From contig OY969902.1 in the NCBI GenBank assembly GCA_963704435.1, positions 720,001 to 752,000 of the forward strand: a stretch of 32,000 nt of DNA, read 5' to 3'. How positions within the stretch are numbered: the stretch's first letter is position 1; the number at the start of each line of letters is the position of its first letter. Positions 8,794-26,014 of this stretch are shown in pieces. The stretch is from an uncultured archaeon. Its GTDB lineage: Archaea > Micrarchaeota > Micrarchaeia > Micrarchaeales > CABMGC01. Under the pieces are notes generated by a model, which was not told the origin of the DNA, ran no database searches, and was given only the letters and a program-made list of their open reading frames with translations. Both the position numbers and the translations under genes were made by a program.

Positions 8794-8918
8794 CGCCAGG
8801 GCAGGGATTTGAACCCTGAAGCCCCGTGAGGGGCACCGGTTTTCATTGCATCACGAATCAGCTCTTGAGACGCTCTGCGCTCAAGACCGGCGCATTTACC
8901 GGATTCTGCCACCCTGGC
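8794..8918 (-). tRNA. tRNA-Ser(UGA), class II, with an approximately 38-nt intron after position 37
   Basis: Hand-folded from the minus strand. Acceptor GCCAGGG/CCCTGGC, discriminator G. Anticodon stem CCGGT/ACCGG with loop C-U-UGA-G-[intron]-A. Long variable arm TGCCCCTCACGGGGCTT. T-arm CAGGG-TTCAAAT-CCCTG. The intron (about 8842-8879) contains CTCAAGA, complementary to the anticodon-loop TCTTGAG. No encoded CCA. Confidence 0.85.
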
Positions 8919-9073: not shown

Positions 9074-9964
9074 ATGCTTGGGGTTAACGTGACGTTCAAG
9101 CCAGCTCATAGTGCAGAGCAAATAACAGAGTTGAGGTCCCTGCATATTGACTTGCAGGCGCTTACGCATGAGCAGAGGAACGGGAATGGCCCTGCAGCTG
9201 AGGCGGTTATTGGCCTCAGGAGGCCGCTGGTCAGGATTGCGGCGGAGAGATACGGAAGTACGGACCCGGAAGTCCTCCTTAATTCGGCAGGGGGCCGCAA
9301 TCTGAGCTGGACCGTGCACGAGGTCGACCTCGACATCGAGCGCGCCTCCGCAGGAGTCCTAAGAGTGCTCGGCAAAGACCGGAGCAGCACTGCGCTCTCT
9401 CCGGACAGTTTCCTTTCAGCAATGCTCGATCGCTGCTATGGCGACGCGCATTATCAAGAGGCGATGTTCGGCATCCTGGCGAGACAGGGAATTCATATGT
9501 GGAGGCAGCTCTGCTCCTGCACCAGGGATTTCACATCGGTGCGTAGCCGCTACGGGCGTGCCGAGAGAGTCATCGGATGGGACTACGCCGCCGCGTGCGA
9601 TAGAGAGGAGTTGCCGCTCCTGCGCGGGATTGGGCATTACGCGATCGAGTTCAAGTCCGTGGCCGCAATGGCGCTGGCATATTCGGACATCGTTGAAGAC
9701 GCAGGTTTTGACGAGCACAGGGGCCACTTCGAGAGGGTGCTAGATGCGCTTGGCAGGGGTTACCTGCCTCTGGGCTATGAAGGAGGAGGGCTCCGCGTCA
9801 TAGCGTTCACGCATAAGGGAAAGGCATCAAAGGAGAAGGACCGCAGGCGCGGAATCAGCAGCAGCATTAACGAGTACGAGCTCACGCAATTAATAACAAC
9901 AGCGGTACGGAATTTGAAGGCGCGAGAAGAAGGAGGAAGAGACGCACATATCCCAGATAAATAG
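9074..9964 (+). CDS. Hypothetical protein
   Basis: 296-aa ORF with balanced composition and no competing long ORF on the other strand. A cataaatag TATA-like element lies about 20 nt upstream. No recognisable family. Confidence 0.55.
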   Translation: MLGVNVTFKPAHSAEQITELRSLHIDLQALTHEQRNGNGPAAEAVIGLRRPLVRIAAERYGSTDPEVLLNSAGGRNLSWTVHEVDLDIERASAGVLRVLGKDRSSTALSPDSFLSAMLDRCYGDAHYQEAMFGILARQGIHMWRQLCSCTRDFTSVRSRYGRAERVIGWDYAAACDREELPLLRGIGHYAIEFKSVAAMALAYSDIVEDAGFDEHRGHFERVLDALGRGYLPLGYEGGGLRVIAFTHKGKASKEKDRRRGISSSINEYELTQLITTAVRNLKAREEGGRDAHIPDK

Positions 9965-9985
9965 CCCTCTAAAATCATCCGCTTC

Positions 9986-10363
9986 TTATAAAGCAAAATA
10001 AATAACTGCCACTGCGATTGCGCTTGAAATAATGGAATAAGCGTGTATGCGCATTGCCTGTCTCATGTCTTCCTTATGCGATTTGGTATCGGTTACCTGG
10101 CTTCTTGATCCGCCGGACCCGGTGAAATCGTATATACCAGCAGCGGCGAAACCAGCGCAGAATCTGAAACGGCCCTGATAGAATCCTTCAAAACCGATTA
10201 GCAGCGGTATGAATGAGAAGAACAACCACCATCGCGGAAAATTGAACGCGAGGATGGAGTAAGAAACGATGGCGGATATCGCGAATCCCACTGCGGCTAA
10301 GTCATACCTCTTCCTTATCTCGGTTTTCCCGATGTTGCAGACTCCTGGCTTGTATTCTGGCAT
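9986..10363 (-). CDS. Hypothetical membrane protein
   Basis: 125-aa ORF with 3 hydrophobic segments (AAVGFAISAIVSYSILAF, WWLFFSFIPLLIGF, AYSIISSAIAVAVIYFAL). The stop of the upstream Rieske gene lies 8 nt before its start. Confidence 0.6.
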   Translation of the reverse strand: MPEYKPGVCNIGKTEIRKRYDLAAVGFAISAIVSYSILAFNFPRWWLFFSFIPLLIGFEGFYQGRFRFCAGFAAAGIYDFTGSGGSRSQVTDTKSHKEDMRQAMRIHAYSIISSAIAVAVIYFAL

Positions 10364-10370
10364 GTCAACA

Positions 10371-10706
10371 CTATACCTTGATCTTTATCTCATCGCCTTC
10401 TACTTCAAGTTCGTATGACTTCAGGTCGTTCGCGCCAGAGCCAGTTATTGTCTTTATCATTCCAGCGACGTCCTTTACCATCTTTCCAGTTTTCAGATCG
10501 AACTGTGCGCGATGTACCGGGCAGGTTATGCATCCATTCTCCACTTTGCCTGCCGGAAGATAGCCCATCATATGCGTGCATAGGGCATCCACAGCGTAGA
10601 ACTTCCCGTCAAATTTCGATATAATAACGGGCTTGTCCGCAACCATTACCGTTTTCATTATCCTGCTTTCAAACTCGTCAGTTTTTGCAACGGTCTCCCA
10701 TGCCAT
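10371..10706 (-). CDS. Rieske [2Fe-2S] domain protein (small ferredoxin-type)
   Basis: 111 aa. CTHMMGYL...(16 aa)...CPVHRAQFD gives the CxH...CxxH Rieske ligand pattern. Confidence 0.9.
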   Translation of the reverse strand: MAWETVAKTDEFESRIMKTVMVADKPVIISKFDGKFYAVDALCTHMMGYLPAGKVENGCITCPVHRAQFDLKTGKMVKDVAGMIKTITGSGANDLKSYELEVEGDEIKIKV

Positions 10707-11099: not shown

Positions 11100-11142
11100 T
11101 TGCGAATATGTCTCCCATTTCCAAGTCAGACAAAAGCAAAAT

Positions 11143-11186
11143 GGGGAGTCCGTTTTCCGAACTTGGGGAGTCCGTTTTCCGAACTT
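11143..11186 (-). repeat. Two tandem 22-bp direct repeats that are pseudo-copies of the tRNA-Pro 3' end
   Basis: The plus strand reads ggggagtccgttttccgaactt twice (11143-11164 and 11165-11186), immediately abutting the tRNA. On the minus strand each unit reads AAGTTCGGAAAACGGACTCCCC, versus the tRNA end GTTCAAATCACGGACTCCCC-A. Confidence 0.9.
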
Positions 11187-11258
11187 GGGGAGTCCGTGAT
11201 TTGAACACGGGTCTTCAGGTCCCAAACCTGAAAGCCTACCAGGCTAGCCTAACTCCCC
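11186..11258 (-). tRNA. tRNA-Pro(UGG)
   Basis: Hand-folded, 73 nt. Acceptor GGGGAGT/ACTCCCC, discriminator A. D-arm with AGCCTGGTA loop. Anticodon stem TCAGG/CCTGA with loop UU-UGG-GA. T-arm CCGTG-TTCAAAT-CACGG. A TATA-like TTTTTAA lies about 30 nt upstream (plus-strand 11285-11291). Confidence 0.9.
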
Positions 11259-15848: not shown

Positions 15849-18800
15849 ATGCCCGCTAAAATCGCGCAAGATCGGAATAATCTTGCATTTTCATTGCTAT
15901 TGGCGACCGTGTTGCTCGCTTTTGCCTCCACCACGGCAAGCGCCTCTAGCATAGTAAATACTATAATAGGGTTCAACGGACCGATCGGGATCGCGGTCTC
16001 GCCGTTCGGCTCCCAGGCCTACGTAGTAAACAACGGCAACAACACCGTGAGCGTAGTGACACTGAACGGCGTAAGCGGCGCAGCGAACGCCTTCTCCTTC
16101 AATGTCCCGTTCTCGGTCAATTCAGTCAACGTCGTATCGCTGATGATAGGCAACGGACTGGCGATAAACGGAGCCAACCAGCTCTATGCCACCGGAACGG
16201 CATTGACGGCCAACGCGCCAATCTTCATAGACTCCAACAACGCAATTTCGATCACCCAGGCGTCCGCGACGGTGAACGGATTCCTGTCGTCAGCCGACTG
16301 GAACACCTTCAGCACGGTCAACAGCAGGGCCTACGCATTCACGGTCACCAACATGCTCGGATACATAGGGAATGTCCTTTCGATATCGAACACGCCGTCC
16401 TTCATGACGGTCACTGCGAACATAATAGGCAACAACGCAGTCATCACTACGCTGACCGGGAACGTCATCGGGAGCACAGCATCCATCACCACGGTGAATG
16501 GCAACGTAATAGGCAATAATGCGGTATTCGGCTCATCAGTCAGTGCGGTGACACTCAACGGCAACGTCGTTGGAAACAACGCCGTGTTCACGTCAATCTC
16601 ATTCACTACACTGTCCGGTTCGACCTTCACAGGGAACATCGTTGGCAACAATGCCGTACTCACGAACATCTACGGAACACTCGCAGGGTCCAACACCATC
16701 TCATTCAGTACCGGCAACGGACAGACCCTGACGGCGAACATCATTGCGCCTAGTTCGATCTATGGAGTGATTTCCGGCGCAAACACGATCGCATTCTCGA
16801 CCGCGACTGGAACCACGGTCAATGCAAACACAGTCGGAACGACGGTCAGTGCGGTTACGCTTAACGGCAACGTCGTAGGCAACAACGCCGTGTTCACTTC
16901 AATATCATTCACTACACTGTCCGGTTCGACCTTCACAGGGAACATCGTTGGCAACAATGCCGTACTCACGAACATCTACGGAACACTCGCAGGGTCCAAC
17001 ACCATCTCATTCAGTACCGGCAACGGACAGACCCTGACGGCGAACATCATTGCGCCTAGTTCGATCTATGGAGTGATTTCCGGCGCAAACACGATCGCAT
17101 TCTCGACCGCGACTGGAACCACGGTCAATGCAAACACAGTCGGAACGACGGTCAGTGCGGTTACGCTTAACGGCAACGTCGTAGGCAACAACGCCGTGTT
17201 CACTTCAATATCATTCACTACACTGTCCGGTTCGACCTTCACAGGGAACATCGTTGGCAACAATGCCGTACTCACGAACATCTACGGAACACTCGCAGGG
17301 TCCAACACCATCTCATTCAGTACCGGCAACGGACAGACCCTGACGGCGAACATCATTGCGCCTAGTTCGATCTATGGAGTGATTTCCGGCGCAAACACGA
17401 TCGCATTCTCGACCGCGACTGGAACCACGGTCAATGCAAACACAGTCGGAACGACGGTCAGTGCGGTTACGCTTAACGGCAACGTCGTAGGCAACAACGC
17501 CGTGTTCACTTCAATATCATTCACTACACTGTCCGGTTCGACATTCTCGGGCAACCTGGTCGGGAACAACGCGGTACTTACTAACATCTACGGAACACTC
17601 GCAGGGTCCAACACCATCTCATTCAGTACCGGCAACGGACAGACCCTGACGGCGAACATCATTGCGCCTAGTTCGATCTATGGAGTGATTTCCGGCGCAA
17701 ACACGATCGCATTCTCGACCGCGACTGGAACCACGGTCAATGCAAACACAGTCGGAACGACGGTCAGTGCGGTTACGCTTAACGGCAACGTCGTAGGCAA
17801 CAACGCCGTGTTCACTTCAATATCATTCACTACACTGTCCGGTTCGACATTCTCGGGCAACCTGGTCGGGAACAACGCGGTACTTACTAACATCTACGGA
17901 ACACTCGCAGGGTCCAACACCATCTCATTCAGTACCGGCAACGGACAGACCCTGACGGCGAACATCATTGCGCCTAGTTCGATCTATGGAGTGATTTCCG
18001 GCGCAAACACGATCGCATTCTCGACCGCGACTGGAACCACGGTCAATGCAAACACAGTCGGAACGACGGTCAGTGCGGTTACGCTTAACGGCAACGTCGT
18101 AGGCAACAACGCCGTGTTCACTTCAATATCATTCACTACACTGTCCGGTTCGACATTCTCGGGCAACCTGGTCGGGAACAACGCGGTACTTACTAACATC
18201 TACGGAACACTCGCAGGGTCCAACACCATCTCATTCAGTACCGGCAACGGACAGACCCTGACGGCGAACATCATTGCGCCTAGTTCGATCTATGGAGTGA
18301 TTTCCGGCGCAAACACGATCGCATTCTCGACCGCGACTGGAACCACGGTCAATGCAAACACAGTCGGAACGACGGTCAGTGCGGTTACGCTTAACGGCAA
18401 CGTCGTAGGCAACAACGCCGTGTTCACTTCAATATCATTCACTACACTGTCCGGTTCGACATTCTCGGGCAACCTGGTCGGGAACAACGCGGTACTTACT
18501 AACATCTACGGAACACTCGCAGGGTCCAACACCATCTCATTCAGTACCGGCAACGGACAGACCCTGACGGCGAACATCATTGCGCCTAGTTCGATCTATG
18601 GAGTGATTTCCGGCGCAAACACGATCGCATTCTCGACCGCGACTGGAACCACGGTCAATGCAAACACAGTCGGAACGACGGTCAGTGCGGTTACGCTTAA
18701 CGGCAACGTCGTAGGCAACAACGCCGTGTTCACTTCAATATCATTCACTACACTGTCCGGTTCGACATTCTCGGGCAACCTGGTCGGGAACAACGCGGTA

Positions 18801-21800
18801 CTTACTAACATCTACGGAACACTCGCAGGGTCCAACACCATCTCATTCAGTACCGGCAACGGACAGACCCTGACGGCGAACATCATTGCGCCTAGTTCGA
18901 TCTATGGAGTGATTTCCGGCGCAAACACGATCGCATTCTCGACCGCGACTGGAACCACGGTCAATGCAAACACAGTCGGAACGACGGTCAGTGCGGTTAC
19001 GCTTAACGGCAACGTCGTAGGCAACAACGCCGTGTTCACTTCAATATCATTCACTACACTGTCCGGTTCGACATTCTCGGGCAACCTGGTCGGGAACAAC
19101 GCGGTACTTACTAACATCTACGGAACACTCGCAGGGTCCAACACCATCTCATTCAGTACCGGCAACGGACAGACCCTGACGGCGAACATCATTGCGCCTA
19201 GTTCGATCTATGGAGTGATTTCCGGCGCAAACACGATCGCATTCTCGACCGCGACTGGAACCACGGTCAATGCAAACACAGTCGGAACGACGGTCAGTGC
19301 GGTTACGCTTAACGGCAACGTCGTAGGCAACAACGCCGTGTTCACTTCAATATCATTCACTACACTGTCCGGTTCGACATTCTCGGGCAACCTGGTCGGG
19401 AACAACGCGGTACTTACTAACATCTACGGAACACTCGCAGGGTCCAACACCATCTCATTCAGTACCGGCAACGGACAGACCCTGACGGCGAACATCATTG
19501 CGCCTAGTTCGATCTATGGAGTGATTTCCGGCGCAAACACGATCGCATTCTCGACCGCGACTGGAACCACGGTCAATGCAAACACAGTCGGAACGACGGT
19601 CAGTGCGGTTACGCTTAACGGCAACGTCGTAGGCAACAACGCCGTGTTCACTTCAATATCATTCACTACACTGTCCGGTTCGACATTCTCGGGCAACCTG
19701 GTCGGGAACAACGCGGTACTTACTAACATCTACGGAACACTCGCAGGGTCCAACACCATCTCATTCAGTACCGGCAACGGACAGACCCTGACGGCGAACA
19801 TCATTGCGCCTAGTTCGATCTATGGAGTGATTTCCGGCGCAAACACGATCGCATTCTCGACCGCGACTGGAACCACGGTCAATGCAAACACAGTCGGAAC
19901 GACGGTCAGTGCGGTTACGCTTAACGGCAACGTCGTAGGCAACAACGCCGTGTTCACTTCAATATCATTCACTACACTGTCCGGTTCGACATTCTCGGGC
20001 AACCTGGTCGGGAACAACGCGGTACTTACTAACATCTACGGAACACTCGCAGGGTCCAACACCATCTCATTCAGTACCGGCAACGGACAGACCCTGACGG
20101 CGAACATCATTGCGCCTAGTTCGATCTATGGAGTGATTTCCGGCGCAAACACGATCGCATTCTCGACCGCGACTGGAACCACGGTCAATGCAAACACAGT
20201 CGGAACGACGGTCAGTGCGGTTACGCTTAACGGCAACGTCGTAGGCAACAACGCCGTGTTCACTTCAATATCATTCACTACACTGTCCGGTTCGACATTC
20301 TCGGGCAACCTGGTCGGGAACAACGCGGTACTTACTAACATCTACGGAACACTCGCAGGGTCCAACACCATCTCATTCAGTACCGGCAACGGACAGACCC
20401 TGACGGCGAACATCATTGCGCCTAGTTCGATCTATGGAGTGATTTCCGGCGCAAACACGATCGCATTCTCGACCGCGACTGGAACCACGGTCAATGCAAA
20501 CACAGTCGGAACGACGGTCAGTGCGGTTACGCTTAACGGCAACGTCGTAGGCAACAACGCCGTGTTCACTTCAATATCATTCACTACACTGTCCGGTTCG
20601 ACATTCTCGGGCAACCTGGTCGGGAACAACGCGGTACTTACTAACATCTACGGAACACTCGCAGGGTCCAACACCATCTCATTCAGTACCGGCAACGGAC
20701 AGACCCTGACGGCGAACATCATTGCGCCTAGTTCGATCTATGGAGTGATTTCCGGCGCAAACACGATCGCATTCTCGACCGCGACTGGAACCACGGTCAA
20801 TGCAAACACAGTCGGAACGACGGTCAGTGCGGTTACGCTTAACGGCAACGTCGTAGGCAACAACGCCGTGTTCACTTCAATATCATTCACTACACTGTCC
20901 GGTTCGACATTCTCGGGCAACCTGGTCGGGAACAACGCGGTACTTACTAACATCTACGGAACACTCGCAGGGTCCAACACCATCTCATTCAGTACCGGCA
21001 ACGGACAGACCCTGACGGCGAACATCATTGCGCCTAGTTCGATCTATGGAGTGATTTCCGGCGCAAACACGATCGCATTCTCGACCGCGACTGGAACCAC
21101 GGTCAATGCAAACACAGTCGGAACGACGGTCAGTGCGGTTACGCTTAACGGCAACGTCGTAGGCAACAACGCCGTGTTCACTTCAATATCATTCACTACA
21201 CTGTCCGGTTCGACATTCTCGGGCAACCTGGTCGGGAACAACGCGGTACTTACTAACATCTACGGAACACTCGCAGGGTCCAACACCATCTCATTCAGTA
21301 CCGGCAACGGACAGACCCTGACGGCGAACATCATTGCGCCTAGTTCGATCTATGGAGTGATTTCCGGCGCAAACACGATCGCATTCTCGACCGCGACTGG
21401 AACCACGGTCAATGCAAACACAGTCGGAACGACGGTCAGTGCGGTTACGCTTAACGGCAACGTCGTAGGCAACAACGCCGTGTTCACTTCAATATCATTC
21501 ACTACACTGTCCGGTTCGACATTCTCGGGCAACCTGGTCGGGAACAACGCGGTACTTACTAACATCTACGGAACACTCGCAGGGTCCAACACCATCTCAT
21601 TCAGTACCGGCAACGGACAGACCCTGACGGCGAACATCATTGCGCCTAGTTCGATCTATGGAGTGATTTCCGGCGCAAACACGATCGCATTCTCGACCGC
21701 GACTGGAACCACGGTCAATGCAAACACAGTCGGAACGACGGTCAGTGCGGTTACGCTTAACGGCAACGTCGTAGGCAACAACGCCGTGTTCACTTCAATA

Positions 21801-23753
21801 TCATTCACTACACTGTCCGGTTCGACATTCTCGGGCAACCTGGTCGGGAACAACGCGGTACTTACTAACATCTACGGAACACTCGCAGGGTCCAACACCA
21901 TCTCATTCAGTACCGGCAACGGACAGACCCTGACGGCGAACATCATTGCGCCTAGTTCGATCTATGGAGTGATTTCCGGCGCAAACACGATCGCATTCTC
22001 GACCGCGACTGGAACCACGGTCAATGCAAACACAGTCGGAACGACGGTCAGTGCGGTTACGCTTAACGGCAACGTCGTAGGCAACAACGCCGTGTTCACT
22101 TCAATATCATTCACTACACTGTCCGGTTCGACATTCTCGGGCAACCTGGTCGGGAACAACGCGGTACTTACTAACATCTACGGAACACTCGCAGGGTCCA
22201 ACACCATCTCATTCAGTACCGGCAACGGACAGACCCTGACGGCGAACATCATTGCGCCTAGTTCGATCTATGGAGTGATTTCCGGCGCAAACACGATCGC
22301 ATTCTCGACCGCGACTGGAACCACGGTCAATGCAAACACAGTCGGAACGACGGTCAGTGCGGTTACGCTTAACGGCAACGTCGTAGGCAACAACGCCGTG
22401 TTCACTTCAATATCATTCACTACACTGTCCGGTTCGACATTCTCGGGCAACCTGGTCGGGAACAACGCGATCTTCACCACAATAAATGCGATAACCTTTA
22501 GTGGGAACATTGTAGGCAACAATGCAGTATTCTCCGGATCAATAAACGTAGGTTCGTGCATAGGCTGCGGCACTGGCAGCGGAGTTACCAGCATCAACGG
22601 TCTTACGGGCGCCGTGAATGTAGTCGGACAGAATGTGATTACTGCTTATGCAAGCAGCCAGAATGTAATATTGTCGATACCTCAGGCAACGGGCTCGCTC
22701 AGCGGCTATCTTGCATCAGGAGATTGGACCATCTTTAACGGGAAGTTCGGAACGGCGGGCACCGGACTTTATGCTTCAGCGACTACGGTCAACTTGGCAC
22801 CCCTCACAGCAGGATATGGGATAAGCATAGGCACCAATGGCAATACGATAATCGCAACGGGTGTCCCTTCAATCTCCGCAGGTACAGGAATACTAGTCAA
22901 CACCGCGAACCAGATTTCGCTAATACCCCTTACCGCAGGCACTGGAATAAGCATAGGCGGTAGCGGCAATACAATAACCTGTACGGGCTGCTCAGGCACT
23001 GCATTCAGTACGGCGGGCACGGGACTTTATTCATCAGGAACAACTGTATCCCTTGCACCTCTGACGGCAGGATTTGGAATACGTGTCGGAACTAACGGGA
23101 ACACGATAACTGCGACAGGAGTTCCTTCAATAAGCGCGGGGACTGGCATAGCGATTACGACCTCCAACCAGATTGCGCTGGCTACCCCGACGAACACCCT
23201 GCCTATCTCAATCACGAGCACAAACAACATCGCCTTGAACATAGGGGCTGGCCTTATGACATCGGCAGGCAAGCTCGCGCTCATACCCGCTAATTCGGAG
23301 AACCCAGCCAACCCGACAGGTACTACTTCAAGCAGCTTATATGTTTACATGGGCACGGGCTTAGTTGGAGGCAGCGGCACTGCGCTCGGCTTCACGCCTG
23401 CGGCAGGAGGGAGCGGCAACGTTATGTTCCAATGCCAGCTTGATGCAGCAGACAACAAGGTATCCTCAACAACGTCGGTCACGAACACCATAAGCATCAA
23501 GCTAGGATATGGCAGCACTGGTAGCAACCCAGTCAATGGAGGAGCCGTGGGCTCAAACTCATTCATAGGACCCGTTCTGGGCCCATATACCTCTTATCCG
23601 GCAACAACTCTTGTGCACACTGACATTGCCCAGATTATCACAGGGCTATCACCAGGAACTAAATACTGGGTCGATTTTGCGGTAGAATCCAGCTCAAGCA
23701 GCAATACGGGTTCGATAAGCAACATCTGGTGCCAGTGGTGGAACGTTGGGTGA
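15849..23753 (+). CDS. Giant secreted repeat protein (2,634 aa): signal peptide, one YVTN-type blade, about 19.4 x 102-aa repeats, tail-fibre-like shaft and C-terminal head
   Basis: Single uninterrupted ORF. The N-terminus MPAKIAQDRNNLAFSLLLATVLLAFASTTASA-SS looks like a Sec signal. IIGFNGPIGIAVSPFGSQAYVVNNGNNTVSVVTL matches the YVTN beta-propeller repeat pattern. It is followed by the repeat array and a C-terminal region with no TM segment. Confidence 0.9.
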   Translation: MPAKIAQDRNNLAFSLLLATVLLAFASTTASASSIVNTIIGFNGPIGIAVSPFGSQAYVVNNGNNTVSVVTLNGVSGAANAFSFNVPFSVNSVNVVSLMIGNGLAINGANQLYATGTALTANAPIFIDSNNAISITQASATVNGFLSSADWNTFSTVNSRAYAFTVTNMLGYIGNVLSISNTPSFMTVTANIIGNNAVITTLTGNVIGSTASITTVNGNVIGNNAVFGSSVSAVTLNGNVVGNNAVFTSISFTTLSGSTFTGNIVGNNAVLTNIYGTLAGSNTISFSTGNGQTLTANIIAPSSIYGVISGANTIAFSTATGTTVNANTVGTTVSAVTLNGNVVGNNAVFTSISFTTLSGSTFTGNIVGNNAVLTNIYGTLAGSNTISFSTGNGQTLTANIIAPSSIYGVISGANTIAFSTATGTTVNANTVGTTVSAVTLNGNVVGNNAVFTSISFTTLSGSTFTGNIVGNNAVLTNIYGTLAGSNTISFSTGNGQTLTANIIAPSSIYGVISGANTIAFSTATGTTVNANTVGTTVSAVTLNGNVVGNNAVFTSISFTTLSGSTFSGNLVGNNAVLTNIYGTLAGSNTISFSTGNGQTLTANIIAPSSIYGVISGANTIAFSTATGTTVNANTVGTTVSAVTLNGNVVGNNAVFTSISFTTLSGSTFSGNLVGNNAVLTNIYGTLAGSNTISFSTGNGQTLTANIIAPSSIYGVISGANTIAFSTATGTTVNANTVGTTVSAVTLNGNVVGNNAVFTSISFTTLSGSTFSGNLVGNNAVLTNIYGTLAGSNTISFSTGNGQTLTANIIAPSSIYGVISGANTIAFSTATGTTVNANTVGTTVSAVTLNGNVVGNNAVFTSISFTTLSGSTFSGNLVGNNAVLTNIYGTLAGSNTISFSTGNGQTLTANIIAPSSIYGVISGANTIAFSTATGTTVNANTVGTTVSAVTLNGNVVGNNAVFTSISFTTLSGSTFSGNLVGNNAVLTNIYGTLAGSNTISFSTGNGQTLTANIIAPSSIYGVISGANTIAFSTATGTTVNANTVGTTVSAVTLNGNVVGNNAVFTSISFTTLSGSTFSGNLVGNNAVLTNIYGTLAGSNTISFSTGNGQTLTANIIAPSSIYGVISGANTIAFSTATGTTVNANTVGTTVSAVTLNGNVVGNNAVFTSISFTTLSGSTFSGNLVGNNAVLTNIYGTLAGSNTISFSTGNGQTLTANIIAPSSIYGVISGANTIAFSTATGTTVNANTVGTTVSAVTLNGNVVGNNAVFTSISFTTLSGSTFSGNLVGNNAVLTNIYGTLAGSNTISFSTGNGQTLTANIIAPSSIYGVISGANTIAFSTATGTTVNANTVGTTVSAVTLNGNVVGNNAVFTSISFTTLSGSTFSGNLVGNNAVLTNIYGTLAGSNTISFSTGNGQTLTANIIAPSSIYGVISGANTIAFSTATGTTVNANTVGTTVSAVTLNGNVVGNNAVFTSISFTTLSGSTFSGNLVGNNAVLTNIYGTLAGSNTISFSTGNGQTLTANIIAPSSIYGVISGANTIAFSTATGTTVNANTVGTTVSAVTLNGNVVGNNAVFTSISFTTLSGSTFSGNLVGNNAVLTNIYGTLAGSNTISFSTGNGQTLTANIIAPSSIYGVISGANTIAFSTATGTTVNANTVGTTVSAVTLNGNVVGNNAVFTSISFTTLSGSTFSGNLVGNNAVLTNIYGTLAGSNTISFSTGNGQTLTANIIAPSSIYGVISGANTIAFSTATGTTVNANTVGTTVSAVTLNGNVVGNNAVFTSISFTTLSGSTFSGNLVGNNAVLTNIYGTLAGSNTISFSTGNGQTLTANIIAPSSIYGVISGANTIAFSTATGTTVNANTVGTTVSAVTLNGNVVGNNAVFTSISFTTLSGSTFSGNLVGNNAVLTNIYGTLAGSNTISFSTGNGQTLTANIIAPSSIYGVISGANTIAFSTATGTTVNANTVGTTVSAVTLNGNVVGNNAVFTSISFTTLSGSTFSGNLVGNNAVLTNIYGTLAGSNTISFSTGNGQTLTANIIAPSSIYGVISGANTIAFSTATGTTVNANTVGTTVSAVTLNGNVVGNNAVFTSISFTTLSGSTFSGNLVGNNAVLTNIYGTLAGSNTISFSTGNGQTLTANIIAPSSIYGVISGANTIAFSTATGTTVNANTVGTTVSAVTLNGNVVGNNAVFTSISFTTLSGSTFSGNLVGNNAIFTTINAITFSGNIVGNNAVFSGSINVGSCIGCGTGSGVTSINGLTGAVNVVGQNVITAYASSQNVILSIPQATGSLSGYLASGDWTIFNGKFGTAGTGLYASATTVNLAPLTAGYGISIGTNGNTIIATGVPSISAGTGILVNTANQISLIPLTAGTGISIGGSGNTITCTGCSGTAFSTAGTGLYSSGTTVSLAPLTAGFGIRVGTNGNTITATGVPSISAGTGIAITTSNQIALATPTNTLPISITSTNNIALNIGAGLMTSAGKLALIPANSENPANPTGTTSSSLYVYMGTGLVGGSGTALGFTPAAGGSGNVMFQCQLDAADNKVSSTTSVTNTISIKLGYGSTGSNPVNGGAVGSNSFIGPVLGPYTSYPATTLVHTDIAQIITGLSPGTKYWVDFAVESSSSSNTGSISNIWCQWWNVG
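16539..22469 (+). repeat. 306-bp (102-codon) in-frame tandem repeat: 19 full units plus a 117-bp partial unit
   Basis: Units start at 16539+306k (checked at 16539, 16845, 17457 and 22353). Three 5' units are type A (TGNIV patch), followed by 16 full type-B units (SGNLV patch) and a partial type-B unit. Minus-strand 71-aa shadow ORFs recur every 306 bp with identical translations. Confidence 0.95.
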
Positions 23754-23830: not shown

Positions 23831-26014
23831 ATGAGAGTTGGACTTTTACTTGGCTTAGTCCTCGTGGCCATCCTGATGGGGACGTCAAGTGCCGCAACGG
23901 TATTTGGATTCAACTCACCCTACTCTGCCGCGATCTCCCCCACCCAGAATTATGTCTATGTAACCAATAGCGGAAACAACACAGTAAGCATCGTCAATTC
24001 CATGAACGACATGATAATCGGAACGATAACCGGCTTTGATATTCCCACCGGAATCGCAATAACCCCAAACGGAACCTTCCTGTATGTTGCCAACTTTGGC
24101 GATAACGAGCTGGCGAAAGTAAGCACCGCGACCGGCATGATCATCGACTTTACTGGTGGGTTTAATCAGCCAGAGTATGTTTCCCTGTCTCCGGACGGGA
24201 AGACCGCATATGTCACTAACCAAGGAAACGGCCAGGTAAGCGCGGTGGCCCTGGCTCCGCGGCCTCTTCCAACAATCGCGCCAATAAATCCCGCTTATGA
24301 CCTTGGCCAGCCAATAACCCTTACCGCCAGCTGGGCCGCGAGCTCGCCTCCTTATACGGCAAACTGGATCATAGAACAGGGATCCAGCCCGGTATTCAAT
24401 GCCCAATATTCTGGAATAACCGGCCTTAACAGCATACTGTCCCTGTCATCAACGACCCTTGGCGTGGGAGACTTTGCCGCCAACGTGATTGTAGAAGACG
24501 GGTCATCAGTCATGACGAGCTCGGCAGAGGACGCATTCGCTATAAGTTCAATATTGAATCCAGCGAATCCCGTCCCATATGATCCTGTCATAACTAGCGG
24601 CCAGAGCGTGACCCTCACGGCAAACCCCAACGGGGGATCGGGCTCCTACTCCTATACATGGTACGTAAGTTTGACCTCGCCTTGCAGTTCCAGCTGGATA
24701 GAGGTGGGGACGGGCCCGTCGATCACGGTGGTTCCTGCAGCCAACTTATACTATTGCTATGTCGTTACGGACAGCGCGACAACGCCCGTGTCTGGGACAT
24801 CCGGTTCTGACCTAGTCACTGTCAATCAGGGCAGCTCCACTACCACGAGCAGCACCGGCAGCACTGGAAGCGGACCGGGCGGAGGAGGAGGCGGAGGCGT
24901 CCAAAAGCCAATAATAATGGAGGCAATCTCGAACTCGACCTCCACATTAGTGAATTTGCTGGGCGAGAAAACAGGCCTCAACATAACCTCCTCGGTGCCG
25001 AGCCAGAATGAGGACATAATCCTAAACATCGCGTCTCTCAATACGTTTAATGTGACGCTGCACGGGGAAAGGCTTAATTTCACCACAAACTTCATATCCC
25101 CGACAAGCGCCGGAATGACGATAAACAACCAAGAATACGTGTTTTCCCAGAATACCACTTTCCTGATAAAACAGAAGAATTACAACTATACGCTTAGCGT
25201 TGAACTATTCAACATATCGATCCTGCCTATCCTGAATACCGTAGAGCTTGCAGTAAGCTCCGAGCCAAACCCCATAAACATTACCGCGCAGAATTTCACA
25301 ATGGCCATACTGTCGAACCAGACCCTCTCCGTCCAGAACCTGACCTCTTCAAGATTCGTCCCGTCAATCCCCACAGGGTACTATAAGCAACTGGTTCAGA
25401 ACGTAAGCGTGCGACAGATACCTGGCACCCCGAATCCAAGGATAAATACGACGGTCGGCGTCGCGATAAAGTACAACTGCAGCATCCCTTCCTACGATGA
25501 GATCCCGCTCATCCTATCCAATTACTCGTGGGCGCAGGTCAGCTCGTTCACCGTGAGACCCAATGACTGCGTGGTGACCTTTTCGTTCCATTCGGATCCA
25601 GTCATGGCCCTTACCAGGTACGTGGGTCCCTCAAACAAAACCAAGCCGCCCACCACGACTATCCCCTACTGCCCTGTGGAATCGCAGGCCGGGTGCATCG
25701 CAATCCCTGCAAACTCGCTTTCACACACATCCACGACAAGCATTCCCTATCAACAGTCCAACCATAAAATAAATGTGCCGCCTTTAGCGCTCTATTCCCT
25801 TGGAGCAGTGGCCGCAGCCGTCATAGCCTGGATCGCCTATAGGAGGTATCGGCTAAGGCCGCGCAAGCCGAAAGAAGGAGCCCGCTCTAAGGTAAGCGGG
25901 GCCAAGCCGCAGGAGGAAGGTCCGCGCGCCGGAAAGAAGGCAAAGAGGGGCAAATCCTCGAAGGCCGGGCAATCGGACAGGCTCAAATCCATAAGCGACG
26001 AGCTGGAAGAGTAG
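23831..26014 (+). CDS. Membrane-anchored surface (glyco)protein: signal peptide, 3 YVTN blades, 2 PKD/Ig-like domains, Gly hinge, sequon-rich stalk, C-terminal TM and basic tail
   Basis: ATG 23831 gives MRVGLLLGLVLVAILMGTSSAA (signal-like); the track's GTG 23774 extension is not hydrophobic. Three blades of pattern (F/Y)V(T/A)N.G.N.(V/L)S. Two domains with PITLTASW...PPYTANW and SVTLTANPNGGSGSYSYTWY. GGGGGGG. C-terminal LYSLGAVAAAVIAWIAY followed by RRYRLRPRKPKEG.... Confidence 0.85.
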   Translation: MRVGLLLGLVLVAILMGTSSAATVFGFNSPYSAAISPTQNYVYVTNSGNNTVSIVNSMNDMIIGTITGFDIPTGIAITPNGTFLYVANFGDNELAKVSTATGMIIDFTGGFNQPEYVSLSPDGKTAYVTNQGNGQVSAVALAPRPLPTIAPINPAYDLGQPITLTASWAASSPPYTANWIIEQGSSPVFNAQYSGITGLNSILSLSSTTLGVGDFAANVIVEDGSSVMTSSAEDAFAISSILNPANPVPYDPVITSGQSVTLTANPNGGSGSYSYTWYVSLTSPCSSSWIEVGTGPSITVVPAANLYYCYVVTDSATTPVSGTSGSDLVTVNQGSSTTTSSTGSTGSGPGGGGGGGVQKPIIMEAISNSTSTLVNLLGEKTGLNITSSVPSQNEDIILNIASLNTFNVTLHGERLNFTTNFISPTSAGMTINNQEYVFSQNTTFLIKQKNYNYTLSVELFNISILPILNTVELAVSSEPNPINITAQNFTMAILSNQTLSVQNLTSSRFVPSIPTGYYKQLVQNVSVRQIPGTPNPRINTTVGVAIKYNCSIPSYDEIPLILSNYSWAQVSSFTVRPNDCVVTFSFHSDPVMALTRYVGPSNKTKPPTTTIPYCPVESQAGCIAIPANSLSHTSTTSIPYQQSNHKINVPPLALYSLGAVAAAVIAWIAYRRYRLRPRKPKEGARSKVSGAKPQEEGPRAGKKAKRGKSSKAGQSDRLKSISDELEE

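Follow-up and report, generated by a model that had tools for sequence, protein, structure and literature searches.

A giant archaeal gene with an in-frame array of identical 306-bp repeats encodes a putative secreted fibre protein

Results

Overall organization of the locus

The window, the whole stretch of 32,000 nucleotides that was analyzed, contains a giant open reading frame (ORF) on the plus strand, and its start at 15849 was called independently on the ENA contig as well. A sequence-only reading of the same DNA had described the repeat array within this ORF and left the protein unaddressed; the identity and architecture of the protein are therefore new. The features of the locus are as follows.

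15849..23753, +, giant ORF of 2,634 aa, a putative secreted fibre protein containing the array (ORF list, translation)
15849..15944, +, predicted Sec signal peptide, aa 1-32 (read from the translation)
15945..16064, +, single YVTN-type β-propeller blade, aa 33-72 (HMMER matches)
16242..16310, +, first ISITQASATxNGFLSSADWNTF module (motif at aa 150)
16407..16538, +, degenerate GN(I/V)(I/V)GNNA sub-repeats leading into the array (translation; motif positions 204 and 218)
16539..16844, +, unit 1, an edge unit with the A-type patch and 7 unique synonymous changes (unit comparison, codon analysis)
16845..17456, +, units 2-3, with the A-type patch only, 12 nt and 2 aa different from type B
17457..22352, +, units 4-19, sixteen base-identical B-type units
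22353..22469, +, terminal partial unit of 117 nt, which carries the B-type patch and then diverges
22470..23255, +, post-array shaft (GNIVGNNA sub-repeat, Cys-Gly linker and Gly/Thr-rich TAGTGI repeats)
22671-22742, +, second module, SGYLASGDWTIFNGK, within the post-array shaft (motif at aa 2292)
23256..23750, +, head domain, aa 2470-2634, a predicted C1q/TNF-like jelly-roll (profile search, AF2, Foldseek)
23831..26014, +, neighboring surface protein, 727 aa from MRVG, with a signal peptide, 3 YVTN blades and a PKD-like region

Structure of the tandem array

Tandem Repeats Finder revealed one array at 16539-22469 with a period of 306, 19.4 copies, 99% matches, 0 indels and a score of 11561. 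The units are arranged head to tail and in frame within the 2,634-codon ORF, the array starts at an exact codon boundary, and it occupies 5,931 of the 7,905 nt of the ORF (75%). Together with a unit-by-unit comparison, this result upheld the array, the 306-bp unit and the 16 base-identical units that had been claimed from sequence alone, and every number given there (units, patches, residue changes and a share of about 75%) was found to be correct. Because the unit corresponds to 102 codons in frame, units can be gained or lost without a frameshift, as had also been proposed.

Units 4-19 showed 0 differences from the reference unit over 4,896 nt. Upon comparison with these units, units 2 and 3 were both changed at the same 12 positions, at unit offsets 86-125, and unit 1 contained the same 12 differences and 7 more at offsets 11-59. 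The comparison agreed with the previous assignment of a type-A patch to units 1-3 and a type-B patch to the 16 central units and the last partial unit. Codon analysis revealed that the 12 nt of the A/B patch fall in 10 codons and change 2 amino acids (T>S and I>L) and that the changes near the start of unit 1 are all synonymous (7/7), both in line with the sequence-only reading. Overall, 17 of the 19 inter-unit substitutions were synonymous, which indicated a translated ORF that is subject to purifying selection.

The clustering of the inter-unit differences is not due to chance: when 12 sites were placed at random in 306 positions, 0 placements in 10^6 trials fell within a 40-nt span, and the probability that 7 random sites fall within 49 nt was 7.6e-5. 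Differences that cluster in this way and are nearly all synonymous exclude simple point-mutation drift, which supports the earlier view of the pattern. The substitutions fit concerted evolution, driven by gene conversion or unequal recombination while purifying selection acts on the protein, and the units at the 5' edge fit copies that escaped homogenization. In particular, the 0 differences over the 4,896-nt interior point to a very recent expansion or ongoing homogenization. For the further proposal that diverged repeat lineages had recombined before a recent expansion, no donor for either patch was found in the window, so recombination between diverged lineages is a step that we infer. Ungapped comparison outside the array in the window and in L008, the corresponding locus of a related species, and L036 found no donor of the A/B patch closer than 12/45 mismatches; weak similarity to the A patch was present at 16407, upstream of the array. 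Promoter-like matches inside the array consisted of one weak match that recurred in each unit, and they were rejected.

Sequence features of the giant protein

The giant protein is rich in Asn, Thr, Gly and Ser, and charged residues are nearly absent, with 0 of 102 in each unit and 19 of 2,634 in the whole protein. The predicted signal peptide consists of a basic n-region, a hydrophobic LAFSLLLATVLLAFA stretch and A-S-A before the predicted cleavage site, and AF2 placed a helix at residues 7-26 within it. No anchor motif for membrane or wall and no transmembrane segment was found past the predicted cleavage site. Most of the 592 HMMER matches covered only query residues ~30-72 and lay within multi-blade proteins; a YVTN propeller is made of several consecutive blades of the TIGR02276 repeat, and the giant protein has one blade-like segment. 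The module at 16242..16310 is repeated many times in five homologues (P0003, P0004, P0005, P0012 and P0013), and the post-array shaft showed homology to two others (P0006 and P0008).

Each 102-aa unit is composed of four sub-repeats, two of GNxVGNNAV and two of YGxxxGxNTIxFST. Within the unit, sub-periods of 24, 30, 34 and 19 residues, together with a hydrophobic period of ~4.9 residues, suggest that the unit may form short β strands. AF2 prediction of a 798-aa short form, encoded by the short-read scaffold described below, with a 13-sequence alignment gave a pLDDT of 43, with values below 50 across the repeats, and two units used as a query against PDB sequences retrieved nothing but compositional noise, namely antibody chains at E > 0.05. 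A rod-like geometry of the repeats is therefore putative. Neither the repeat unit nor the N-terminal or C-terminal part matched Pfam, NCBIfam or PHROG at or above family thresholds. Low-complexity words swamped a word-indexed search for homologues of the 798-aa form, which returned only the protein itself and one weak match, and the search with the last 200 aa returned nothing; the homologues reported here were obtained with profile and exhaustive HMMER searches.

We also found that N-glycosylation sequons are strongly avoided. One sequon was observed and 26.7 were expected in 900 non-redundant residues, and 0 of 20,000 shuffles were as low as the observed count (P < 5e-5). The avoidance is common to P0003, P0005, P0006 and P0018, which share the N-terminal modules or the head and of which P0003 and P0018 are on archaeal contigs, and to the L008 gene; it is absent or much weaker in viral and bacterial-type homologues. 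This distribution fits a protein that is exposed to the archaeal N-glycosylation machinery and has been selected to stay unmodified. Near-total avoidance of N-x-S/T in an Asn/Ser/Thr-rich protein with predicted export is a testable clue to how fibres fold in N-glycosylating organisms.

Predicted structure of the C-terminal head domain

A profile search identified 658 homologues of the head, mostly proteins of 139-290 aa without annotation. The AF2 model of the head, built on a 109-sequence alignment, had a pLDDT of 77.3 and a pTM of 0.76, and the predicted fold is a compact β-sandwich jelly-roll of about 130-150 residues. Foldseek matched the model in the PDB to the CBD of the cyanophage A-1(L) short tail fibre, 4-1BBL and the C1q head, and additionally to the BC2L-C TNF-like lectin (BC2L-C-N), Pgp3-C and lambda gpJ. 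Probabilities were ~1.0 with moderate TM scores of 0.4-0.55 and E-values of about 1e-4 to 1e-6, and sequence identity to these structural neighbors was only 9-18%. Matches in BFVD comprised giant-virus collagen/C1q proteins and many tailed-phage proteins.

An Mtd_N-head fusion was found among the head family, one head homologue adjoins a collagen-repeat gene on a phage-like contig, and a minority of the family match PHROG tail-fibre or tail-protein families, with one member each. The head family is thus large and unannotated, and some of its members are phage tail-fibre proteins; with more than 650 members, it is a candidate for a new domain definition.

Neighboring gene and genomic context

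Besides the features listed above, the neighboring protein contains a Gly run, 18 N-glycosylation sequons, a C-terminal transmembrane helix and a Lys-rich tail, and its three YVTN blades pass TIGR02276. The two surface genes are kept as a pair at the same chromosomal place in L008, where the stalk sub-repeats are retained and the C-terminal domain is different, and both are absent from L011, a further relative. P0003, a homologue with the same N-terminus, lies on an archaeal chromosome 3.5 kb from a ribosomal-protein operon and has no YVTN neighbor, so the pairing is not universal. Among viral relatives, the stalk sub-repeats were found on GVMAG contigs and in P0011, whose gene lies between two NCLDV major-capsid genes.

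Housekeeping genes flank the surface genes on both sides, with LeuRS on one side and MinD, PadR and an ABC transporter on the other. The LeuRS passes the archaeal equivalog TIGR00395 and the MinD is of archaeal type. An Rfam search revealed a 125-nt tRNA in the window that probably contains an intron, and the syntenic L008 carries RpoK and geranylgeranyl reductase. The nearest named homologues were from Micrarchaeota and Micrarchaeaceae. The host is an archaeon, probably a small-genome DPANN/Micrarchaeota relative, its place within DPANN being judged from the named homologues and from the size of the contig that carries the window's proteins (852,977 bp).

Copy number in other assemblies

The sole independent contig that crosses the locus, a short-read scaffold, contains 1.4 units (unit 1 and a partial unit) with no Ns and encodes the 798-aa product. 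It showed 0 mismatches to the window in 4,195 bp upstream and 2 in about 7.5 kb downstream, which identified it as the same strain; the short version could be an assembly collapse or a real deletion allele. Contigs L003 and L004 from two other assemblies begin 112 and 29 nt upstream of the 3' end of the array at 22469, inside the terminal partial unit, as expected if the array is multi-copy in those samples too. In GTDB genomes and JGI metagenomes we found no orthologues with other unit numbers, only distant and mostly viral relatives, and public assemblies held no exact match to the 2,634-aa product on record. Short-read metagenome-assembled genomes (MAGs) appear to systematically collapse or truncate this gene family, to judge by the 798-aa and 2,634-aa versions and by several contigs that end in repeats, and surveys of archaeal and viral surface proteins would consequently under-report such proteins.

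Discussion

Proposed model of an extensible stalk

On balance, we favor the reading that the repeats code for an extensible shaft, part of an extracellular fibre that the archaeon secretes. The N-terminus, with the Sec signal peptide, the single YVTN blade and the short modules, would be cell-proximal; 19.4 copies of the uncharged, sequon-free and putatively β-rich 102-aa unit would form the shaft; and the jelly-roll head, of a type that phage tail fibres and giant-virus fibres also have at their tips, would lie at the distal C-terminus of an oligomeric, probably trimeric, fibre that may serve in adhesion or host contact. Units of 306 bp that are identical over kilobases may act as substrates for unequal homologous recombination, replication slippage and gene conversion. 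Such recombination would keep the interior identical by concerted evolution, leave the 5' edge diverged, and add or remove whole 102-codon units without breaking the frame, and length may accordingly vary within the population. The number of units would then set the distance between head and cell, as in bacterial Periscope proteins.

An artefactual origin of the 19.4 units and/or of the perfect identity of 16 units, in a gene and repeat that are themselves real, is quite unlikely. It would have arisen in the long-read assembler or in consensus polishing that spread the majority base to all units; reads that map to several places are known to homogenize repeats during polishing, and the near-same-strain scaffold spans the locus with unit 1 and a partial unit only. 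However, De Bruijn assemblers routinely cross a tandem loop once, and a 1.4-unit scaffold is the expected product of such a collapse. Its junction between the unit-1 tail and a B patch does not occur in the window, yet the assembly graph permits it, since all units share 266 nt. The stops of L003 and L004 inside the array are what an unresolved repeat with many copies typically leaves, the A,A,A,B...B order and the distinct unit 1, both of which wholesale homogenization would tend to erase, have survived, and the array as a whole spans an exact number of codons.

We also consider it highly improbable that the ORF is a fibre gene from a virus, either integrated or co-assembled, and not a cellular gene. 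Its immediate neighbors are housekeeping genes, no capsid, terminase, portal or integrase and no viral structural gene module was found among the 20 larger ORFs of the window scanned against Pfam, and GC and skew are the same as in the flanks. Additionally, the predicted signal peptide is of the cellular Sec type, the YVTN blade is shared with the cellular neighbor, and the conserved place of the gene pair in L008 and the position of P0003 near a ribosomal-protein operon argue for a chromosomal gene. A viral origin would account for the occurrence of both the head family and the stalk sub-repeats in viral contigs, for a head homologue on a virus-like contig that consists of small ORFs without annotation and was binned with a Micrarchaeaceae MAG, and for a duplicated tRNA-Pro 3' end 4.6 kb upstream, although the tRNA-proximal repeats are oriented away from the repeat gene. 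A cellular but non-adhesive product, namely a structural fibre, a sheath, an S-layer-associated spacer, or an ice- or mineral-binding flat β-solenoid of the envelope or matrix, is unlikely. Its repeats would provide bulk or surface area and not adjustable reach, and its head would serve for oligomerization only. The uncharged, extreme Thr/Asn/Ser/Gly composition resembles the regular Thr/Asn faces of β-solenoid surface-binding proteins, C1q/TNF-like heads double as trimerization nuclei, and the neighboring gene resembles a membrane-anchored envelope glycoprotein. Nevertheless, some head relatives are small proteins or fibre tips in phage tail-fibre contexts, where target recognition is the usual role, and the combination of retained sub-repeats with another C-terminal domain, as in L008, is a pattern typical of a specificity-module swap. 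The absence of both surface genes from L011 indicates that they are accessory and not core envelope genes.

The extensible-shaft reading bears on an archaeal lineage whose way of life is believed to rely on contact between cells, and the giant protein is a concrete candidate for a contact fibre. A speculative and rather improbable extension is that archaea of the DPANN/Micrarchaeota type build host-contact fibres from modules shared with viruses, combining a receptor-binding head of the phage tail-fibre C1q/TNF-like type with a charge-free, glycosylation-proof shaft of giant-virus-like β-repeats. Such archaea might tune the symbiont-host distance or escape host defences through rapid gain and loss of identical 102-aa units, and also through an exchange of heads among lineages, at which the differing C-terminal domain of L008 hints. 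For attachment to the cell, the N-terminal YVTN blade might dock onto the three-blade membrane-anchored neighbor; this split-propeller docking is a low-probability idea, because P0003 lacks such a neighbor.

Comparison with known systems

Among archaea, the closest parallels in general description are the giant surface proteins of DPANN lineages. These include the SPEARE proteins of Nanohaloarchaeota, and Nanobdella reportedly has surface structures. Large secreted proteins of this type occur in small ectosymbiotic archaea and have been proposed to mediate host contact; these proteins are multi-enzyme or adhesion mosaics and are not known to contain kilobases of identical tandem units.

The predicted fold of the head is similar to that of viral fibre proteins (phage short tail fibres, the lambda gpJ tip, the collagen-C1q proteins of pithovirus and tupanvirus, and adenovirus), and the archaeal protein has a similar arrangement of a repetitive shaft and a C-terminal jelly-roll knob. 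In the adenovirus fibre, the number of repeats sets the length of the shaft. However, the arrays of the viral relatives have 42- and 102-bp units with 76-93% identity, while the archaeal units are 306 bp with 100% identity, and the archaeal gene lies in a cellular chromosome and encodes a predicted Sec signal peptide.

A further parallel, along with related giant repeat adhesins, is MpIBP, the ice-binding RTX adhesin of the Gram-negative bacterium Marinomonas primoryensis, which contains a very long extender of many ~104-aa units with near-identical or identical DNA. The extender is a spacer that projects the distal ligand-binding domains; its units are Ca2+-stabilized Ig-like beads in an RTX protein secreted by the type I system. 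The archaeal protein likewise has many identical ~100-aa units ahead of a distal domain, but it has no RTX or type I secretion signal, and its uncharged unit lacks acidic Ca-binding residues.

The closest known class is that of the bacterial Periscope Proteins (SasG/Aap G5-E, Rib/alpha C, Sgo_0707 SHIRT, CdrA and CshA), in which units of ~80-130 aa follow one another in frame in long tandem arrays and are very highly identical at the DNA level (Whelan et al. 2021, PMC8201768). This identity is thought to drive intragenic recombination and changes in repeat number, and the array forms a stalk that sets the projection of a terminal functional domain (PMC8201768). The sequence-only reading was right to call such repeats rare, with the qualification that they characterize a class already described: it comprises 1,576 of 2.5 million proteins in long-read bacterial genomes, short reads fail to assemble these genes, and long reads are needed (PMC8201768). 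The class was described only in bacteria, and archaea were not mentioned (Whelan et al. 2021, PMC8201768). Some differences from it are present. In the archaeal protein the polarity is reversed, with a putatively cell-proximal N-terminus and a C-terminal head; LPXTG or any other anchor is missing; and the unit, for which Pfam gave no match, resembles an uninterrupted Asn/Gly/Thr β-repeat. The defining trait of Periscope Proteins is length variation from strain to strain, and the archaeal protein is likened to them by its DNA features, as its array of 306 bp x 19.4 with 16 units that are 100% identical is a long-repeat, high-identity array of the same kind. Variable-length surface proteins of this kind are already known in bacteria, and the array is a probable archaeal example. 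By analogy, the giant protein is best read as an archaeal counterpart of the Periscope or fibrillar adhesins of bacteria. Should the number of units prove both real and variable, the Periscope principle, in which reach is tuned by recombination between identical repeats, extends from bacteria to archaea.

Organization of the repeat array

Tandem Repeats Finder was used to delimit the array, which showed a period of 306 bp with 19.4 copies, 99% matches and 0 indels; no second large array was present in the 32-kb window. Together with the ORF comparison, this result confirmed the extent, period, in-frame position and 75% share of the ORF that had been read from the sequence alone. The features concerned are as follows:

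15849-23753 (+): giant ORF of 2,634 aa, with a codon boundary at the array start
16539-22469: array, 75% of the ORF
17457-22352: units 4-19

The array was cut every 306 nt and the units were compared base by base. Units 4-19 showed zero differences at any position and correspond to the 16 base-identical units of the sequence-only reading. Units 2 and 3 (version A) differed from units 4-19 (version B) at the identical 12 positions, at unit offsets 86-125, and unit 1 carried these 12 A-type differences plus 7 extra ones at offsets 11-59. The 117-nt partial unit at the array end followed the B version and then departed from the repeat. As evident from the codon comparison, which bore out both the two patches and the seven synonymous differences reported earlier, 7/7 unit-1-specific changes were synonymous, and between the A and B patches 10 codons differed, with just two amino-acid replacements (T>S, I>L). 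Because 17 of the 19 changes were silent, strong purifying selection on the protein sequence is indicated. The 12 sites fell inside 40 of the 306 nt, which occurred in none of 10^6 random draws, and the 7 sites fell inside 49 nt (P = 7.6e-5, random draws); the clustering of inter-unit differences is far from random. The earlier interpretation was thus supported as to clustered, mostly silent differences; since no donor of either patch was found in the window, its two diverged repeat lineages are something we can only infer. The shaft has probably undergone concerted evolution, in which unequal recombination or conversion would keep the interior units identical, and the 5' edge units, at the end of homology, would retain older synonymous differences.

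Copy number in other assemblies

Exact copies of two window proteins, LeuRS and the ABC-ATPase, led to other public contigs. The array locus is spanned by a short-read scaffold from ENA (L001/L002), which has 11,455 bp without Ns and belongs to the same strain, with 0 mismatches in 4,195 bp upstream, including all of unit 1, and 2 SNPs in ~7.5 kb downstream. Its gene passes from unit 1 directly into the partial B-type unit, and the product has 798 aa (2,634 - 18 x 102). This short form is either an assembler collapse of the tandem loop or a genuine product of recombination between units; a single de Bruijn walk through the loop gives exactly this form, because 266 consecutive bases are identical in all units. 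Two further contigs, L003 from an NCBI metagenome and L004 from Logan, both start within the terminal partial unit, 112 and 29 nt before the array 3' end, respectively, as is characteristic of a multi-copy repeat that assembly left unresolved. Contig ends were also the location of homologous genes in the related species represented by L008, in L036 (a Micrarchaeota MAG) and in several viral contigs; short-read assemblies systematically truncate this gene family. Several samples thus contain a genuine multi-copy repeat, while 19.4 copies and perfect identity rest on one assembly, presumably a long-read one, in which the window proteins lie on a contig of 852,977 bp; we consider it improbable that copy number or unit identity is an assembly or polishing artefact.

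Repeat-gene homologues reached the contig end at L036 3881-4409 and in six IMG/VR contigs (L037, L040, L041, L043, L050 and L062). Outside the array, the window and the same-strain contigs differed at two positions only: 23083 (G/T; an Arg-to-Leu replacement in the shaft after the array, GIRVG vs GILVG; common to L002 and L004) and 24203 (A/T), inside the neighboring gene 23831-26014.

Architecture of the giant protein

No Pfam, NCBIfam or PHROG model matched any part of the giant protein. As read from the translation, the N-terminus is a predicted Sec signal peptide of typical form, in which a basic n-region precedes a hydrophobic core of 15 residues and A-S-A. The following segments were recognized:

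aa ~33-72, after the signal peptide: single YVTN-type propeller blade
after the YVTN blade: 'ISITQASATxNGFLSSADWNTF' module, with many copies in archaeal and bacterial-type homologues
between this first module and the array: degenerate GNxVGNNA sub-repeats
downstream of the array, in order: second DW(T/N)xF module, Gly/Thr-rich repeats, ~160-aa C-terminal domain (head)

The majority of 592 exhaustive-HMMER matches aligned to the YVTN blade alone. The 102-aa unit is composed of four sub-repeats, two of the GNxVGNNAV type (24 and 19 residues) and two of the YGxxxGxNTIxFST type (30 and 29 residues); its self-similarity peaked at shifts of 24, 30, 34 and 19 residues, with a hydrophobic period of ~4.9 residues. 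D, E, K and R are all missing from the unit, which gives ~1,980 successive uncharged residues, and the whole protein contains 19 charged residues in 2,634. This total lack of charge in the unit is a testable side finding.

GNxVGNNx and YGxxxGSNTISAST sub-repeats were also present in giant-virus proteins at 33-49% identity, including one (P0011) whose gene sits between two NCLDV major-capsid genes, and IMG/VR yielded 46 stalk matches, GVMAG contigs among them. The giant-virus relatives have DNA units of 42 and 102 bp with 76-93% identity, in contrast to 306 bp and 100% in the window. The AF2 model of the 798-aa short form gave pLDDT < 50 over the repeats and the PDB held no sequence relative of the stalk; beta-solenoid, triple beta-spiral and beads-on-string geometries are the candidates.

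In a profile search, the last ~165 residues matched 658 proteins, most of which have 139-290 aa and lack annotation. One relative is labelled Micrarchaeaceae, and its contig of small ORFs without family matches looks like a virus. Another is encoded beside a collagen-repeat gene; its phage-like contig is ~60 kb long and carries SU10-type adaptor genes. A third is fused to an Mtd N-terminal domain. A minority matched assorted tail-fibre or tail-protein families of PHROG, each family being hit by one member, and 10 relatives were found in IMG/VR contigs. The AF2 head model, from a 109-sequence alignment, was an all-beta sandwich (pLDDT 77.3, pTM 0.76). Its Foldseek neighbors were the cyanophage A-1(L) short-tail-fibre CBD, 4-1BBL, the C1q head, BC2L-C-N (a TNF-like lectin), Pgp3-C and the lambda gpJ tip. 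The BFVD neighbors were collagen/C1q proteins from pitho-, cedrat-, tupan- and pandoraviruses, along with many proteins of tailed phages. With TM-scores of 0.4-0.55, the comparison therefore supports the predicted fold class and not its detail.

Depletion of N-glycosylation sequons

Although Asn accounts for 13% and Ser+Thr for 30% of the giant protein, it contains a single N-x-S/T sequon (N64, within the YVTN motif) vs ~27 expected in 900 non-redundant residues, and 0 of 20,000 shuffles were as low (P < 5e-5). The L008 gene and the close homologues with either the N-terminal modules or the head were likewise depleted.

Sequons in homologous proteins
Protein; observed; expected
P0003; 5; 14.1
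P0005; 1; 17.6
P0006; 0; 6.3
P0018; 1; 5.5
L008 gene; 0; 11.5

Depletion was much weaker or absent in giant-virus and bacterial-type homologues, and the neighboring surface protein has 18 sequons vs 11.5 expected. We infer that selection may keep the exported protein N-glycan-free, for example if Asn is buried in a tightly packed beta-repeat. Sequon avoidance is likewise a testable side finding.

Genomic context

The LeuRS satisfies the archaeal equivalog model, and MinD most resembles the archaeal type. A 125-nt tRNA (Rfam 45.8 bits; unreported by ARAGORN) is, from its length, probably an intron-containing archaeal tRNA. For both the N-terminus and the head, the closest relatives bearing a name come from Micrarchaeota and Micrarchaeaceae, which, taken with the 853-kb contig, suggests a DPANN archaeon as the host. 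Features near the array gene are as follows:

8794-8918 (-): tRNA of 125 nt
11186-11258 (-): tRNA-Pro
23831-26014 (+): neighboring gene with three YVTN blades, PKD-like segments, an 8-Gly run, a domain dense in sequons, a single TM helix near the C-terminus and a long tail rich in Lys/Glu

Its product is a candidate glycoprotein of the envelope or S-layer type. The syntenic contig L008 (JGI 3300035696), which encodes RpoK and geranylgeranyl reductase, keeps the repeat gene and the downstream YVTN/TM-anchored glycoprotein gene as a pair. Its repeat gene (3-1100; the contig begins within the repeats) occupies the corresponding position and has GNxVGNNA / YGxxxGxNTI sub-repeats as in the window and an unrelated C-terminal domain, which suggests that heads have been exchanged on a conserved shaft. 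In a more distant relative (L011 8358-9558), the MinD-PadR-ABC-CARDB block is present and both surface genes are absent; the two therefore form an accessory island. The P0003 gene, located on an archaeal contig, has a ribosomal-protein operon at a distance of 3.5 kb and no YVTN glycoprotein neighbor.

P0003 (500 aa; L093 8001-9885) has an odd non-repetitive tail overlapped by a 136-aa ORF, which may reflect a frameshift or repeat collapse in the assembly concerned. Beside tRNA-Pro, a 22-bp unit is repeated 2.5 times in tandem without mismatch (11142-11197); this repeat contains the last ~11 nt of the tRNA (cggactcccca) two further times downstream and looks like an att-type integration or excision scar; the adjacent ORFs that were scanned at 9074-10706 had no family match.

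Interpretation and comparison with known systems

The simplest account is that the giant protein is a cellular, secreted fibre in which a shaft of repeats links a cell-proximal N-terminus to a jelly-roll head at the distal end. Given the viral relatives of shaft and head, the giant ORF might itself be a viral gene; against this, LeuRS lies on one side and MinD-PadR-ABC transporter-CARDB genes on the other, and no viral hallmark was found among the window ORFs scanned, and we regard this origin as very improbable. The head would be of the type that viruses use for target recognition; a structural, non-adhesive role is unlikely, if somewhat less so than an artefactual array.

The proposed cellular fibre matches the Periscope Proteins, a concept defined in bacteria in a paper that leaves archaea unmentioned (PMC8201768). 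That survey found long, highly identical repeats in 1,576 of 2.5 million bacterial proteins, the largest repeat-number variation accompanying the highest DNA identity (PMC8201768). The giant protein shares the repeat identity of Periscope Proteins (PMC8201768); variation in repeat number, rod geometry and anchoring would be further, putative parallels. By this analogy, the phenomenon is of a known kind, and the archaeal host, the unannotated unit and head families and the virus-like modules are what is new in this instance.
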